61,495 nt of DNA from Basidioascus undulatus (Eukaryota). The stretch's first letter is position 1, and every line of letters starts with the position of its first letter. The position numbers were made by a program, and so were the translations under genes. This document shows positions 29,869-44,802 of this stretch, piece by piece. The notes below the pieces were generated by a model. The model saw only the letters and a list, made by a program, of their open reading frames with translations. It ran no database searches and was not told where the DNA came from. The DNA lies in assembly GCA_000826855.1 (NCBI GenBank), contig JTLS01000005.1, forward strand, positions 1 to 61,495, in the 5' to 3' direction.

Positions 29869-31134
29869 GATTCAGAGAAAGAGAAGGGTGAGGCAGATCA
29901 GGGCTGTTGGTCTAGGACAGTGTAAGTGTAGTGTGTTGAAGTGGTGGGTGTAGACGAGGATGAAGCAATCGGGGATGAGGCAGTGGTGAGAAAAGGAGAA
30001 CCGAAGTCTGCACATTTACCTGCTGAATGTTGTATCTTGGCAGACGCGCCACTGGAAAATGCCATCAGGAACGGCGAGATTTCAATGCAGCACAGCTCTC
30101 AGCTTTGGTAGGCACAGCTTTAACGCTTCCTTCCAGTGTGCAGTATTAGACTCGAGACTGCCATGCGCTGAGTGCTCAACGCTTGATCCCAAGTTCTTTT
30201 GAAAAGAGTATAATGTTCTTCCAGACAGTCGAGGCACAGGACAGAAGAAGGTGAAGGGAAGTGATTCGGAACACCTGCAGTGCATCGCGATCGGCTCAGG
30301 GCGGCGGCACAGATGCACTTTTGGGAACCAGAGCCCTTTCCACTCCCACTGCTGAACCATAGCCGTATTTGAAACGGCCTACGAGAGCCTGGGGGGTGCA
30401 GATCCTCAGTTGTCGAAGCCGATGCAGACTGTGACTCCAGGGCTGTCAGTCCTGGCAGAGCGCATCCCTCCGAATCGGAGGTCAAGCAGGCTCTGAAGCC
30501 CCTGACTGTTTCTGATTAACATTATCTCAGTTAAATGCTCATCTTTCTAAAGGCTGACAGCACACTCGACTTGCAGCACAGCCAAGGAGGGTGAACATTG
30601 GTGGACTCGGCACCTCAGCTCGTAGGGTCACAGACTTACCCGTTCTTCCTTGTTCATGGGGGGATTCGGTGCCCCAAGTTTTCTTTCGCTGAATGCTCAG
30701 AGTACAGAGTTCCATCCGTGGCATGGTACAGACCAGTCGCAAATGTTGGCTGGGCTGGGAGAAGTTTGCAGCCCAATAATTGCAGCAGTCATTTCTCTTA
30801 GTCTTCGCCGAAGTCCACCTAACGCTTCAGGTGCTTTCTACCCTCTGGACTCCATATTTTCTGAAATTACTCTCCGGATGACGGTTGCATTTCTCACTGT
30901 GGTGAGATTCAGCTGGGAGTGAAGTGAATGAAATCTCTGTGCCGAAAGATGTGGCCCCGATAGTCAAGCCATAGCAGCCTCGGCTACACGGCAACACGTC
31001 GCTCTTGACTGCCTTCTCCCTTTCCCATTCACCCTCCGCAGCTGCCAGCTCGGCCTCCTCCTTGTACATCCTACACAGTCTCCATATAACCCTCCGGACA
31101 GCAGATCTTACCACGCTGCTCTTTCCCACAGAAA

Positions 31135-36140: not shown

Positions 36141-39100
36141 TCAACGCCCCCCGCGCGACTTTGTCTTGCGCCCGCGGGCCTTGCCCAGCTCCTGCTTCTT
36201 GAGCTCCTGGAGGTTGTCCATGTTGAGGTCCGCACCGAGCCACTTGACGAACACGTTCGAGTGGCAGCTGCACCCGCCCTTGCCGCATGGCACGACCTCG
36301 GCCATCCGACACGGGAAGCTCGCGCCTGTACAGTAGCGACGCGTGTCATCAGAGAGGGGAGCGCGACGGGAGCTGCGAGGGAATACGAACGGGCTTCGAA
36401 GATCCTGCGGTCGACGTGTGGGTGGCGGAGGATGTACCTGAGACGGAGAGCGGGTCAGCTCCGGTGCAGGGAACGCTTGAACGTTGAGCTCACTCGTCAA
36501 GAGGCAGGAAGCCGCGTCGGCGGATGAGGAAGTCTGCGGGCAAGGCGACAGTCAGTCTTTGCGACATCCCATCGCATCTAAAAAGGTGGCTTACCGCTCA
36601 AGCGATACGTTTCCGGGCTCAGCCCCTGGGGCGTGACGACGAACAGATGCTGCAGGGGCGGGAGCATCGGCCCCAGCGACGGGTTCGCCTGGTGCTCCAC
36701 ATTGACCTGCGACCACTCAAAGCATTCGTCAGTAGCCGAAAGGTCGACGACGGACAAGGTCGGCGCACCTGCGTCCGCTCCTGGATGACCTTGGTCGCGA
36801 TCTTGCCGATGCAGAACGCCGCGCGGTCGTCCCCCTCCTGGCCCTCCTGCGGCATGCTGCACTCGATGAGCAGCGTGCCATTCTCCATGTCCCACTCGGC
36901 GAGCGCTGCGCCCCCTCTCAAGTCAATACGCATGCGCTCGGATTGCAGATGAAGGCGGGGAACACGCACTGAGGCCGACAAGCTCGCTTTGTGCTGGGAT
37001 GAGGACAGGTGTGACGCTGTCGATGGTCGGGAGGATAAGCAGCTGCCTGAGCAGGAAATATCAAGGTCGCATACCTGAGGTTCGGGAACAGCCGGTCTGA
37101 AGCCTCCTCCGCCGCGGGCGGGCTGCTCGGATGTGCAGCCGAATGCGAGCCCCTCTCCCTTCTACTCCGTACTCTCGCCCACGTCTTCGTCCGATCCAGC
37201 CAACCCCTCCTCAAGCATCAGTCTCCCTTCTCCGTTCCCCCGCTTCCCACTGCCGCGACTCACAAAGCACGCATACCGCCTCATCTTCCCCCCCGGCCGC
37301 TCCTCCCGCAGCATCTGCTCGCGCGTCGGCCAGGACGCGTCGAGCAGGTCGACGACGTCGGACCACTCGCGCAGGGGCATCAGGCCGGAGTCGTTCTCCA
37401 TGTTCTGGTTGGCGGAAGGCGGATAAGTTCACGTTTCCCTTGGGGTAGTGAGGGACGAGGAGAGCGCACGTACGTCCGGCACCGCGAGACGCGATAGCAG
37501 CCGCTGTGTCCAGTACGTCTTGCATAGCGCGAGGATAGCGGTCTGCTCCTTCTCTGAGCCGAGCTCCTGCAGGACACGCACCCACCAGCTACATCAGCCT
37601 TGCCCGGCGCCCCAGCGCAGCGCTACCACTCTATCGCCTACATGCGGTACCCGCTTGACGCCAAGCTCCATCTCCGTGCTCCCGATACTGCATCCCAGTG
37701 TAAGCTGTGTATCAGTACTCCTACTCAACGATACGTTCAGAAGCCAGACGCACCGGACATGCGACAAGCTGCACGTCTTCCGCCCGTCCACGAACAGCTG
37801 TTTTGCGCGCCACTTTCCGATTCCGATGCGCCCGCCACCACCGCCGCCACAGTCCGAGCAGCGCTGATACCGTCCCCAGCACTTGAGGCAGATGTACTGG
37901 TCCCCGTTCCCACCATGCCCCTCGCCATGTTAGCCCGCACAGGGACGGGGTTGGGTGCGAAAAGGGGTACGCACCTCGATCTGGAACGTGATCGGACTCC
38001 GCCCATCGAGCGAAACTGCCCCGCCGGAGCCCTGCTCCCGCCCGCACACGTCGCAGCAGACAAAGTCCGAGTCGTCCCCCCGCCCGCGTTTGCGAGTCCC
38101 GGACGGCGCGGCGTGCAGCTGGGCTGGTGCGCAGTCATTGCAGAGATAGTGTATCTGTGATGAGATCAATTCGAAGCGTCAGTCAGTGATTCTCGCAGCC
38201 AAGGAAATGGACCCCGGTACGCACCTTGTACTCGATGTTAAAGTCGTCCGGCTCGCCGCGGAGAAAGAGCTTGGCCATTGCCTTCCCGCAGTTCGCGCAC
38301 GCGCAGTCCACCTCGACCGCCTGCTTCTTGGCCTTCTTCTTCACAACAGCCGCCCCAGCCCCGGCGCTCGCCCCCGCCGCGGGACCGCCCGCAGCGACCG
38401 TGGAGTGCTCGCTCGGCTGCGGGCTGGGTGGGTTGTGCTGCGACGGGAACGGGCCGTCGATGTGGTAGTTGTTGTACATCGAGTCCGTCAAGGGCGGGCG
38501 GCCGGGCTGGGTAAAGTCGAACTGCTCGAGGAGGGAATCGAGGTTGGAGAAGTCAGGTGGAGCGGGGGTAGCGTCGGATGGAGCGGGGGCGTAGGGCGAG
38601 GCGGAGGATTTGGAAGGGTCGAGGACGGCGCGGGCGGCGGGCCCGATGACGTTGGAGAGGGGCGAGGAGGGTAGGTAGCTCTGCGCGAGGACGGGGGAGG
38701 TCGACACGGGTTGGGTGTATGGTGTCGGGTAGGCGCCTTGTACAGCGCCTTGCGGCTGAGCGAACTGCGATTGTTGCGCCTGCTGCTGCTGCTGATGTTG
38801 TTGCCCATTCGTTGGCGGTCCCTCCGGCCCTGGACCACCGCTCCATCTCCTCTCCGCGGCCGCGGCCGCGTCGAGCCTCGCAAGCTCGAGCGCGGCCTCC
38901 CTCTCCCTCCTATGCTCCTCGGCGATGCGCAGATCAAGCGTCTTGGCCTGTGCCGCCTCGCGCATGATCTGGAGGATCATCGCGAGCTGCTCAGTCGACG
39001 CGCCTGCCGGCCCGCCGGGGGGCTGGAGCATCTGCGCGAGCTGCACATGGGGCACGATCTGCGAGGGGATGCCGAGTGCATCGAAGTCGACGTTGAACGC

Positions 39101-40722: not shown

Positions 40723-41223
40723 GCTTCGGAGGTGGTGGTGGTTAGAGCTGAAGGTGGAAGACATTCACGTTGAGGCCCTGAAGGCAAGGCGAGATGACGC
40801 AAGGACGCTGAGATGTTCGCAAGCTCGAACGGCGCTCACAGCCCTTTCGATTTTTTCGACCAGTGCACCGGCCACCGAATGAACGAAAGCTGAAAATAAT
40901 GTGGGCAGTTGCTGCGAGTAAACCCCGTATGAACCTCTACACCGGAGCAGAACCTGCGAACCCTCAACAAGCTTCCTCCCCCGCCGAACCCCTTTTGGCA
41001 CAGACTCAAACATCGCCCAAACTAATAACACACCATCCAAGCACAGATTACGCGATGATTTTAGTCGATTAATTACGGAGGAGTCACACGCGGGCGCGTA
41101 GGGTGGGTATGTGCGTGTGTCAGATCGTCGCGGAATCGTTCACGCTTGTCATGAAGCTACGGGGAGTGGGTCGCTCGAATTCCTTCATAACCCCTCGTCG
41201 TCCGTAGCATTGGAAGGCGCTAC

Positions 41224-41799
41224 CTAGTATTTCAAGATGATATAGAGTGCGTGGATGATGCCAGGCAGGTAGCCGAGCAGGGTCTGTCCAAAGTCGATTC
41301 ACGGTGTCAATTTAGGCCGACGGGGCTTCCTGGACCCGGAGTGCCCTTCACAAGTTAAGAAAGAGTAGCGCACGAGGAGGATATTAATCCAGAAGTCGGC
41401 AGCGCAGCCTGAGGTAGTGGGGGAATGGCATGAGTCTATAGGAGGCGGGCGAGGAGGGACTGCGAGGAAGGGGGCGCCTACCGCGCTCGAGGAACACGCC
41501 CAATGGGGGGAGGATGACGGCGAAGCTATTGAACGGATGAAATGCATTGTCAGCGACCGAGAGCCACCCCGCAATTGTCAACGACGTACATGATCTTCAG
41601 AATGTCCTGCACCGCGACACCGCGCGACCATGCACCCGCGTCAGTCCACCTGGATCCCCGGCCTCAATCCAACACGCCCGCTGGAAAACAAGGCTTACTC
41701 TGCGGGGAAGGGACAGAGTGGCGTACGAAGTCCATCAGCGGGCACTCTTAAAATGCAGCATATGGACCGGAAGAGGACATACGAGCAAGTGAAAGGCAT
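41224..41799 (-). CDS. PMP3: Pmp3/UPF0057 plasma-membrane proteolipid, copy A (57 aa, 6 exons including a 1-nt exon at 41699)
   Basis: Spliced product [57 protein letters not shown]. Confidence 0.92.
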
Positions 41800-42065
41800 A
41801 TTGTTTTGCAGAGGAGGGTTTCAATGAAAGAGACGGGTGTTCGAGTATGGTACGTTCGAGCAGGCTGTTGTGCGTTACGGTGAGTGGCAAGAGGGAGAGC
41901 ACCAACGAGCGAGAGCGTCAGCGCTTTAGTCGAGGGAAATGCTTCAACTTGGAGTCAGCTGGGAGTAAGCGGGAGTATAGCGGGCCGTCCATTTGCGGTG
42001 CAAGCTTCGCTGCGCAATGCGCAGCGAACGCTGTCGTCGACGTCGCTCAGCCCTTGGTGCTATGC

Positions 42066-43390
42066 TGAACCGGCTCACGAAACCGGCGCACTGACGTACC
42101 TGAAGGCTGAGTTGCAGAAGATGTCGACGAAGATGAACCCATGGTCCTTCGACCGCTGATGTTGTTTCTTCGACAAAAAGGTTGCGACGCCGCTTGACCG
42201 CAGAGGGGATGAAACGTTAATCGACAAGGCTTGATTTCGTTTCACAGTTATCCTAACAGGCACGTGCACTTGGCCTTGCACGAGGCGACCCTACACATGG
42301 TCTTTGAATGTCGTGCACTACTCGCAGTCTCTCGCATTGGTTGGCCACGCAATGGAACTGCAACTCAAGGTACCATTTGATGAGCACAGAGCCGGAGCCA
42401 ACCAGCTCGTTTCTTGTGGAGACTTTCAGAAACAGTCTTTGGATGGCCCAAGATAGCACTTCGATTCGCACAAGGCGGCGCACTCCTGCGGAGCATACGT
42501 CAAGAGAAGGGACCTTCAAGCAGCAGCCTCAAAAGCACTTGGTATGACCCTCTGATGAATCATTCGTACAACCAGAAGGAATTTTCTTGGTCACACCAGG
42601 TCTACTGAAGGACCGAGCGTTTGGCAAAGTACTGTCGCCCCTTCTCGTCAACGCTCGCTGAACTTGGTTGAGAATGTGCTAATTTAGTACTCTTCGTAAC
42701 AGTGGTAATACGAAATCTGGGATTGACCATGCCAGGGACGAGATGGAGCCTCGCGAAAGCCTCACGAAAATGTCGGCTTTCGAAGTGGTCCGGGCCCACC
42801 CCCCTTTCGACCACCTGTGCCTGTACTGCAACCGAATGTCACATCGCACTATCCTGTACAACCATGTATGCTGGTAAGGTTAATACAGCAGTGTCGAAAG
42901 GTGACGTCGAACGGGCGGCCAGGTCATGAGCCGCTCTGATCCACACTAGCCTCTGAACAGGTGAGTTGTGAGAAGCTTCGCGGCTACGATGCATGTGTTC
43001 AGACCAGTTCTTTGCTCATGTCTAAGCAGATCCACCAGAGAAAGTGGGCTCTATGCCGACGACACAGCCAAAAGCTTCCCCGTGATGGCATCGGCCAATC
43101 GCCGCCGCAGCGTGTTGTCGCACGTCACCGCCACCAATCGCACAAACCAAAGCGCAGATTACGCGGCGTGTATGGCTCAAAAATATGCCCACCCTTGGTC
43201 TCCTGGACCGGCTGAACCGGGTCACTGGCGTACCTGAAGGCTGAGCTGTAGAAAATGTCGAGGATGACCCATGGTTGCTCGTCAGATGTCAGGGAAGAAG
43301 AAAGTCGTGACACCGCTTAACTGCAGAGTGATGAAACGTTGACTGACATTGCTTGCAGTGCTTTACAGAGTATAATATGTTTCCTTAAAG
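42066..43390 (+). repeat. Diverged direct repeat pair (about 42066-42260 and 43210-43390), probably relic 3' ends of BTB-type genes
   Basis: cactgacgtacctgaaggctgagttgcagaagatgtcga..cccatggt..ccgcttgaccgcagag..gatgaaacgtt versus cactggcgtacctgaaggctgagctgtagaaaatgtcga..cccatggt..ccgcttaactgcagag.gatgaaacgtt. Confidence 0.75.
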
Positions 43391-43512: not shown

Positions 43513-44030
43513 ATGCCTCCCTCTGTGCAATCGAGTTCTCCAACGCGGACGGCGGTGTTGCGTTTCTGTCGTCCGACGAGGTCATGTTCAACGTTCCAGC
43601 GGACACGCTCATTTACAACTCGCCCGTCTTCCGGGACATGCTGTCCCTCCTCCAAGGCGGCGGAGGGGCCCCCGAGTCCATCCACCTGTCGGAGAAGTCC
43701 GCCGTGCTCAGGAGGTTCTTCCCCCTGCTCGACCCAGAGAGGGCCGACGGGCGCTGTGCAAGAACGTGCAGAGTTGCCTTGGGGTCCTCGAGGTTGCGGA
43801 TAAGTACTCGACGCGGCTTGTGGGGCTGCTCATCGCCAACCATCTGCTCTTTCTGATTCACGTCTCCCAATACCGGTCGATCGAGGTTTATGCCAAACTC
43901 CCGCACGCAAGATTCGAGAACGCGGCTCGCATGGCATCGACTAACTGTTACATCAGCGCGTAGTCGCGCGTTGCCGCCGCCGACTCGCACACAATGAAGC
44001 ACAGATTACCCGGCGTATATGGCTCAAATA
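43513..44030 (+). pseudogene. BTB/POZ-domain pseudogene
   Basis: FSNADGGVAFLSSDEVMFNV..L..NSPVFRDML..IHLSEKSAVL..LD and VLEVADKY are typical of fungal BTB proteins. Frameshifts near 43531 and about 43750, with an early stop at 43963. Confidence 0.75.
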
Positions 44031-44207
44031 GATACAGTAGAATCACAGGCGGGTGCGTAAGTGTGGGGTGTGCGTGGGCGTCGGGTGGTCGTGGTATCGT
44101 GAAGGCTCGTGAGGAAGGTGAGGGTGGATGCGCCGTCGGACGATGTCGCTAGAAAATATTCTCCGGGATGATCGATTGTTGTCCTTTGCGTCCGCAATTG
44201 TAATCAT

Positions 44208-44802
44208 CTAGTATTTCAAGATGATGTACAGTGCGTGGATGATTCCGGGGATATAGCCGAGAATGGTCTGATTCGGATCGAATCGCGGGGTCAATTTCGG
44301 CCCAATTGACGTCCTGGGCCCGCTACGCGCGTCTCAAGTCAAAACAGAGAAACGTACGAGGAGGATGTTGATCAGGAAGTCGGCGTTGCAGCCTGTAATC
44401 ATGGGGGACTGTCCGTAAGACAACTGCTTGCTTAGGCGAGGGCGTGGCGTGAAGTCGGGGCGTGGGAGGTGGCGGCAGTGCTTACCGCGCTCGAGGAAGA
44501 CGCCCAACGGGGGAAGGACGATGGCGAGGCTGTTTGGCGAAGAATGTGTCAGTCATAAGGGACCCGGGGACAGTGCGAGCCATCGCCGACTTACATGATC
44601 TTCAGGATGTCCTACATCACGACATCGCCAGCAATACGAACATCCGTCAGTCCATCAGGTTCTCCAAGCCTCACAACCGCTGTCGAGGGGTGTGGATCCA
44701 TAGCTTACCCTGCGAGGAAGGACGAAGGGATAGTCAGTCGCTTGTCCCTGTCCGCCCATGAGAGCCCCAGCAGTAGAAGACGTACGAGCAAGTGAAAGGC
44801 AT
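44208..44802 (-). CDS. PMP3: Pmp3/UPF0057 plasma-membrane proteolipid, copy B (57 aa, 6 exons including a 1-nt exon at 44709)
   Basis: Spliced product [57 protein letters not shown]; same intron positions as copy A. Confidence 0.92.

Follow-up and report, generated by a model that had tools for sequence, protein, structure and literature searches.

Exons of a single nucleotide have been described in a plant and in fungi. In Arabidopsis thaliana the gene APC11 contains a constitutive 1-nt exon, A333, which was demonstrated experimentally in Arabidopsis and in rice by means of GFP fusions (Guo and Liu 2015, PMC4674806). The CYP621A P450 genes of Fusarium have a one-nucleotide exon that is always G (AGGGT), that supplies the middle of a Gly codon and that is seen in SRA reads (Nelson and Syed 2026, PMC12940212), and its authors propose that a 1-nt deletion was rescued by a cryptic exon (PMC12940212). 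A long-read annotation of Coprinopsis cinerea, built from full-length transcripts, reports 13 1-nt exons in 13 genes (PMC12230235), a count that predates the claim of a first fungal case made in the Fusarium paper (PMC12940212).

Here we describe two paralogous genes, copies A and B, and a reading of them that we consider very probable. Both would encode a functional Pmp3 proteolipid (PF01679) in an intron-rich fungus, probably a basidiomycete, and in each a true 1-nt exon would complete the Ser6 codon with its third base, which is A for copy A but G for copy B. Two other arrangements of closely spaced splice sites are known. At recursive splice sites (ratchet points) an acceptor abuts a donor, the intron is removed stepwise and nothing stays in the mRNA; in stwintrons one intron interrupts the splice signal of the other. 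Stepwise removal is what the Pmp3 genes would have in common with both, but in these genes the primary transcript has two complete introns, and one base between them would be kept in the mRNA. The genes differ from a recursive site with its zero-length exon in that one base parts the AG from the GT and must be retained for the frame, and from a stwintron in that the DNA itself has both donors, both acceptors and both branch motifs uninterrupted.

As in APC11, the base lies between two GT-AG introns, keeps the frame and is missed by annotation, and the APC11 base is an A as in copy A (PMC4674806). APC11 is however a different gene, in a plant, and its case is experimental (PMC4674806), whereas Pmp3 splicing is read from the sequence; the Pmp3 genes moreover form a paralogous pair with different bases, and their first intron is demonstrably ancient. 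The likeness to CYP621A is a fungal AG-N-GT inside an apparent intron of about double length, together with a conserved protein that needs one extra base (PMC12940212). The Fusarium genes are those of an ascomycete, with G only and as the middle base of Gly (PMC12940212), whereas in Pmp3 either A or G occupies a fourfold-degenerate third position, and a comparison with orthologues suggests intron gain. The exons reported for Coprinopsis cinerea are those of a basidiomycete, as the Pmp3 case probably is, and show that 1-nt exons are not exceptional in intron-rich basidiomycetes (PMC12230235); the terms Pmp3, 'proteolipid' and PF01679 are absent from five of its supplement files. Literature searches on 1-nt exon, microexon, stwintron, Cryptococcus and basidiomycete topics returned no paper on a Pmp3 microexon: PMC7394265 mentions Pmp3 only as a small ORF, and two Cryptococcus annotation papers mention microexons only as a mapping option.

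The window – the whole stretch of DNA analysed, 61,495 nt – carries the two Pmp3-type genes on its minus strand about 3 kb apart, copy A with its ATG at 41799 and stop at 41224, and copy B with its ATG at 44802 and stop at 44208; a motif scan of all six frames found no third Pmp3 copy in the window. Two other ORFs point to a fungus, probably a basidiomycete: an MCP1-like ORF matches only proteins of Steccherinum and Tilletiaria, at 33% identity, and a REV1-like ORF falls closest to clusters in which the few members with names are mostly Basidiomycota. Each gene has six exons of 17, 1, 17, 44, 35 and 60 nt, single base included (Table 1), and with that base the predicted product of each copy is a 57-aa Pmp3 protein. 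All ten introns of the two copies are 64–97 nt long, and the eight other than the intron 2 pair are 64–93 nt; intron 1, the single base (N) and intron 2 read together as one intron would span 174–176 nt, about twice the local norm. The initial annotation of this DNA had laid out copy B as exon 1, a 76-nt intron, a G at 44709, a 97-nt intron and then GACATC, and every one of these coordinates is exact; it had also stated that the two copies share this architecture, and copy A does have the matching layout, with an A at 41699.

Table 1. Predicted exons and introns of the two Pmp3 copies, with positions in the window; sequences are given in the sense of the genes.
Feature	Positions	Strand	Description	Remarks
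Copy B exon 1	44786..44802	-	17 nt, ATG to first two bases of Ser6 codon, ends TGCTC	17/17 identical to copy A exon 1
Copy B intron 1	44710..44785	-	76 nt, GTACGT...CCTCGCAG, ends CGCAG; inside Ser6 codon, phase 2	donor 8.9 bits; CTGAC with branch A 24 nt from 3' end, then pyrimidine tract (fraction 0.88)
Copy B exon 2	44709..44709	-	single G, predicted third base of Ser6 (TCG)	frame-keeping; omission gives a stop at codon 9
Copy B intron 2	44612..44708	-	97 nt, GTAAGC...GGACTGACG...GATGTAG; before Asp7, phase 0	donor 6.9 bits; branch A 35 nt from 3' end
Copy B exon 3	44595..44611	-	17 nt (GACATCCTGAAGATCAT), starts GACATC	
Copy B intron 3	44530..44594	-	65 nt	
Copy B exon 4	44486..44529	-		
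Copy B intron 4	44393..44485	-	93 nt	
Copy B exon 5	44358..44392	-		
Copy B intron 5	44268..44357	-	90 nt	
Copy B exon 6	44208..44267	-	includes stop	
Copy A exon 1	41783..41799	-	17 nt	identical to copy B exon 1
Copy A intron 1	41700..41782	-	83 nt, GTATGT...CTGAT...CCTTCCCCGCAG	donor 9.5 bits; branch A 35 nt from 3' end; pyrimidine fraction 0.82
Copy A exon 2	41699..41699	-	single A, predicted third base of Ser6 (TCA)	
Copy A intron 2	41607..41698	-	92 nt, GTAAGC...GGACTGACG...GTGCAG	donor 4.8 bits; branch A 34 nt from 3' end
Copy A exon 3	41590..41606	-	starts GACATT	followed by intron 3, 64 nt
Copy A exon 4	41482..41525	-		followed by intron 4, 73 nt
Copy A exon 5	41374..41408	-		followed by intron 5, 90 nt, 41284-41373
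Copy A exon 6	41224..41283	-	includes stop	

Homologues were collected with the unspliced read-through of copy B from exon 4 through intron 4 into exon 5 (P0001), in which intron 4 is open and in frame; this query matches Pfam PF01679 in two stretches at 36.2 bits (cut-off 22.9). All 22 matches of the first homologue search carry PF01679, and a second protein search, started from one of them, contributed 120 of its 212 proteins. Fungal Pmp3 proteins are 57 aa long and begin M-[PA]-F-T-x-S-D-I-x-K; [ST] and D are adjacent in 130 of the 133 Pmp3-like proteins retrieved, and in none of the 133 is a residue inserted between Ser6 and Asp7. Because the N-terminus of the family has Ser6 and Asp7 side by side, the mRNA must read TC-N-GAC. 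The spliced models are identical to named fungal Pmp3 proteins at 50 of 57 residues (A) and 53 of 57 (B), and no public protein equal to either product is present among the 136 proteins retrieved. The two copies have what places a gene in Pmp3 / UPF0057 (PF01679), namely a profile match above the cut-off, obtained with the read-through of copy B, and a product of about 55–57 aa that is colinear with fungal Pmp3. Over 171 coding nucleotides, the base differences between the copies fall in synonymous codons (12) and in codons with a conservative replacement (12), and since the changes are synonymous and conservative only, both copies look functional.

A number of public basidiomycete Pmp3 models (P0002, P0004, P0026, P0027, P0040, P0067, P0091 and P0125) contain spurious sequence within them or at their ends, or have surrogate N-termini. 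Their sources are Trametes, Dioszegia, Saitozyma, Cryptococcus, Cutaneotrichosporon and Vanrija, and short exons have evidently been missed in them; two differing Pmp3 models of Cutaneotrichosporon oleaginosum are present in public data.

Possible routes from a start codon into the conserved protein were enumerated with an exhaustive solver anchored on the exon that encodes a conserved 10-residue motif, taking every ATG up to 900 nt upstream of the anchor, GT/GC...AG introns of 35–350 nt, at most three introns and at most two mismatches to the position-wise consensus. Two paths were returned for copy B and six for copy A, and none does without a microexon, whose length is 1, 5 or 6 nt. Only the path with the 1-nt exon combines, in both copies, an absence of mismatches with a good donor for intron 2 (GTAAGC); the two other zero-mismatch paths of copy A use first introns of 36–38 nt and second donors GTGCCC or GCCCGC. 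When exon 1 is joined straight to exon 3 the frame shifts and a stop follows at codon 9 in both copies. The base is therefore needed for the conserved frame, and no ordinary splice path suffices.

Donors were scored with a position weight matrix made from 79 distinct fungal Pmp3 introns, whose columns on the exon side carry a homology bias; scores within the reference set go down to 1.1 bits, with the 5th percentile at 3.3 and the median at 10.0. Across intron 1, N and intron 2, the two assigned donors of copy B (8.9 and 6.9 bits) are the top two GT sites and those of copy A (9.5 and 4.8 bits) are the first and third best, the intron 2 donor of copy A lying below the reference median. Each half-intron of either copy has one CTGAY branch-like motif 24–35 nt from its own 3' end, and a pyrimidine tract (fraction 0.82–0.88) stands upstream of the internal acceptor of intron 1. 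Both copies thus have the makeup of a 1-nt spliceosomal exon, a single base between two complete GT-AG introns that each possess donor, branch site and acceptor.

The string GCAG-N-GTAAGC occurs twice in the 61.5-kb window, exactly at the two Pmp3 sites, and the initial annotation was right that it is kept in the two copies with N as A or G at the fourfold-degenerate position of Ser. Shuffled versions of the window have a mean of 0.12 matches, and one shuffle in 100 gave two or more. A looser form, YAG-N-GTRNGY, is not enriched (12 matches in the window against 11.4 expected), and it is consequently the context that carries the argument; the motif by itself proves nothing. Two more AG-N-GTAAG sites are present on the plus strand at 29918–29927 and 37696–37705 (CAGTGTAAGT and CAGTGTAAGC). 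Searching bacterial and archaeal genome contigs for exon 1 followed by its donor gave two matches, about the chance estimate, both in bacterial DNA without Pmp3 motifs.

The two copies were then compared with each other. Exons 1 and 3–6 are 80–100% identical, with exon 1 matching at 17 of 17 positions and the exon 2 base differing, and the introns are 51–66% identical over aligned non-gap columns (51% for intron 1 and 66% for intron 2); the flanks are at 46–47%, the 5' flank at 46%. Within intron 1, CCTTCCNCGCAG at the 3' end is identical at 11 of 12 positions, followed by N and then by GTAAGC at six of six, and it ranks with the branch regions of introns 5 and 2 as one of the three best-conserved 12-mers within the introns; the branch block of intron 2 is also identical at 11 of 12 positions. 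Once splice signals are removed, similarity is no longer detectable between the intron 1 cores (p=0.25), and those of introns 2 and 5 retain some (p=0.003). The initial annotation had described the flanking introns as largely diverged, which is correct for intron 1 but uneven overall, intron 2 being still similar. At the internal site 17 of 19 columns match against a background of about 55% (p ~0.002), a binomial estimate of our own from two sequences that holds for a pre-specified site and would fail correction if taken as a scan of the whole intron. That a block of acceptor plus donor is kept in the middle of what could be read as one intron is suggestive, as it is what a real exon boundary would predict.

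Intron 5 (41284–41373 and 44268–44357) is the best-conserved intron, with 66% identity and no gaps over 90 nt in each copy. Its conserved blocks include AAATTGACNCCG and GGGYCCAGGA, and the conservation exceeds the need of a branch site alone.

Orthologues were obtained by scanning metagenome contigs for the back-translated 10-residue motif, which gave at least 116 matches in at least 115 loci, with full flanks for 80 loci. The solver resolved the N-terminus in 102 of the 116 matches listed: 60 show a single, phase-2 intron within the Ser6 codon, 17 have no intron ahead of the anchor motif, 17 have an intron before codon 11, five have introns both before codon 11 and in codon 12, with a 5-nt microexon between them, and three have other single intron positions. 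The remaining 14 comprise six with too little upstream DNA and eight that were read by eye, among which one (L037) has a further Ser6 phase-2 intron, for a total of 61 of the 116 matches listed, three have an intron in codon 4, three have a contiguous N-terminus through Ser-Asp, and one (L033) was rejected as a spurious match that is not Pmp3. The exact layout TC/GT...AG/N-GAY (slashes mark splice boundaries), with a 17-nt exon 1 ending in TC, is found at 17 of the 52 distinct loci with the Ser6 intron, N being C in 14 and A in three. The other 35 have an AGY serine split as AG/.../Y, so that the same old intron is seen in both serine codon families; the AGY form of the split gives the consensus exon end AG/GT.

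An intron before Asp7 is present in none of the 102 solved matches and seven Pmp3 loci read by eye, among the matches listed, and N is followed by GT at none of the 52 distinct loci with the Ser6 phase-2 intron. The 1-nt arrangement is kept in both paralogues and is absent from the metagenome matches solved or read, none of which is from a close relative; the best coding-sequence nucleotide identity to any of the loci listed is 80–87%. The initial annotation had proposed looking for AG-N-GT in orthologues to date its origin, and the two halves of the site fare differently: the Ser6 phase-2 intron is in 61 of the 116 matches listed, but AG-N-GT is in none. As for the other introns of the window genes, the one in codon 12 (phase 2) is common to six loci, the one in codon 27 (phase 1) to L016, L069 and L071, and the one in codon 39 (phase 0) to L029.

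The 5-nt Pmp3 microexon (L029, L053, L070, L078 and L102) is a related case in this family: it too lies in the N-terminal helix, where it separates two short introns by a few bases, and the codon-12 phase-2 intron is common to these loci and the window genes. It differs in size and place, and both microexons are predictions from sequence. The two introns at these loci are about 56–73 nt long, and the N-terminal helix of Pmp3 seems prone to closely spaced introns.

Three other accounts of the 5' part of these genes were weighed against the 1-nt exon. One GT-AG intron could run from the second GT of GTAYGT to the AG before GAC, giving a 58-aa protein with Tyr between Ser6 and Asp7, a legitimate canonical alternative that the initial annotation had itself raised. 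This needs no microexon, is in frame in both copies, makes the C/T difference between the copies in GTAYGT synonymous for Tyr, and leaves a respectable score against an HMM built from 41 full-length homologues (122.7 and 120.5 bits, thus still 120–123). Those scores are however about 7 bits below the 129.5 and 127.4 of the models with the 1-nt exon, the intron would measure 170–172 nt against 64–97 nt for the others, and the donors required, TAC/GTCTTC in copy B and TAT/GTCCTC in copy A, score -0.5 and -1.7 bits, against 8.9 and 9.5 for the ancestral donors that they overlap and 1.1 for the weakest of the 79 reference donors. The conserved internal pyrimidine tract, AG, GTAAGC and second branch site would also go unexplained. 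No insertion between Ser6 and Asp7 occurs in the 133 homologous proteins or in about 109 orthologue loci read, and we consider a Tyr-containing product very unlikely. It is also hard to credit that the conserved N-terminus is not made at all, whether because translation starts elsewhere, as at the in-frame ATG at 44759 in intron 1 of copy B, or because one or both copies are decaying. That ATG does read in frame to the GTAAGC donor, and surrogate N-termini do exist in public basidiomycete Pmp3 models such as P0125. Copy A, however, offers no such start, as its two intronic ATGs are 64 and 38 nt away from the donor, distances not divisible by 3. The HMM score of the model with the alternative ATG is 17 bits lower, at 112.4. 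Exon 1, moreover, is identical in the two copies at 17 of 17 positions, against 46% for the 5' flank and 51% for intron 1, and it also matches orthologous exon 1. Decay is contradicted by two intact coding sequences with conservative changes only.

The remaining account keeps the protein and moves the splice sites: a single non-canonical intron shifted by one base (TA...AG, or GT...TA / GT...CA) would leave a boundary G in the mRNA and give TCG GAC in both copies. The same conserved protein results, and for copy B the mRNA sequence would be indistinguishable from that made with a 1-nt exon. There N is G, and so are the base with which intron 1 opens and the one with which intron 2 closes, so that the predicted mRNA TGCTCGGACATC also fits a single shifted non-canonical intron; this ambiguity was overlooked in the initial annotation. 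In copy A, N is A and cannot stem from an intron-boundary G, and only copy A therefore discriminates. Against a shifted intron, all 79 reference introns begin with GT (the solver admitted GT or GC donors only), a strong canonical donor stands one base away, the conservation of the internal signals is unexplained, and the objection from length is the same as for the Tyr intron. TA-AG and GT-NA introns are, to our knowledge, extremely rare, and we regard a shifted intron as highly improbable. The 1-nt exon is thus the reading that we retain. The initial annotation had taken the conserved signals with differing N as the pattern expected of a real 1-nt coding exon under selection. The exon part is supported by the Ser6-Asp7 constraint and the splice search; the single synonymous A/G difference is consistent with selection and is not a test of it.

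Since the Ser6 phase-2 intron is in 61 of the 116 matches listed, intron 1 is old and widespread, and since the position of intron 2 is absent from the orthologue loci and present in both A and B, intron 2 appears to be a lineage-specific addition that predates the A/B duplication. The simplest reading would be that a second intron was gained in this lineage one base downstream of the ancient one, before the duplication. The two paralogues share ancestry, and the 1-nt exon seen in them is one evolutionary event, not two. An alternative origin is the one put forward for Fusarium, in which an exon base was lost and a cryptic AG-N-GT within a long intron made good the loss (PMC12940212). For Pmp3 this would need an ancestral intron of about 175 nt; the longest orthologous Ser6 intron among the loci listed has 170 nt, and the other eight introns of A and B have 64–93 nt.

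Two candidate sources of intron 2 were examined and rejected. For a duplicate of intron 1 there is a single 10-nt cross-match, between intron 1 of copy A and intron 2 of copy B (p=0.027, uncorrected over 45 pairs). As for a multi-copy introner-like element, the window has no other copies beyond chance matches of 11–21 nt.

The stretch between the genes at 43138–43355 consists of two joined pieces that resemble the region upstream of copy A and the 3'-UTR of copy B. The first is similar to 42064–42233, about 270–430 nt upstream of copy A (81–93% over blocks of 15–53 nt), and the second to a block of the copy B 3'-UTR at 43985–44033 (82% over 49 nt). AAGCRCAGATTAC occurs three times in the window, at 41039, 43150 and 43997. 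No conserved ORF was seen in 43138–43355, which looks like a third duplication unit minus the Pmp3 gene body.

With a 1-nt exon, splicing of these transcripts might proceed as follows. In the ancestor of the paralogues the old phase-2 Ser6 intron would have been joined, before the tandem duplication, by a new and independent GT-AG intron one base downstream, and each short intron would be recognised singly (intron definition) by signals of its own, namely donor, CTGAY branch site and acceptor. Because a single base parts the intron 1 acceptor from the intron 2 donor, two spliceosomes cannot sit there together, and the introns would have to be removed in succession, in either order. Were intron 2 removed first, the pre-mRNA would take the ancestral single-intron form of the orthologues; were intron 1 removed first, exon 1 plus N would recreate a donor context (TCN/GTAAGC), as at a recursive splice site. 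This two-step removal would resemble that at a recursive splice site, but with one base staying in the mRNA. Omission of the base would break the frame between exons 1 and 3 and bring a stop at codon 9, and the protein would come from the two-step product only.

These elements can be assembled into a fuller scheme, which we think unlikely to hold as a whole. It would combine a base that has no exonic information (A and G both work), a new intron beside one that predates the split of ascomycetes and basidiomycetes, an obligatory two-step removal, a splicing efficiency that acts as an on/off gate for a stress-related proteolipid, with translation ending after 8 codons when the base is missed, and paralogues tuned by donor strength (6.9 versus 4.8 bits).

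One-base exons are already known from Arabidopsis, Fusarium and Coprinopsis, and the Pmp3 case is a further example that leaves the general knowledge of splicing unchanged. It has two features that the Fusarium case lacks. With an A/G pair of paralogues, in place of G only, one cDNA read of copy A would separate a 1-nt exon from a shifted splice, and the history is clear: an ancient intron has, at a distance of one base, a neighbour specific to this lineage. Subject to confirmation, the Pmp3 case would add to the fungal 1-nt exons and be the first found in its family. For that family the exon would also be an annotation trap, as a 1-nt exon is beyond standard gene finders, and several public basidiomycete Pmp3 models already look mis-spliced.
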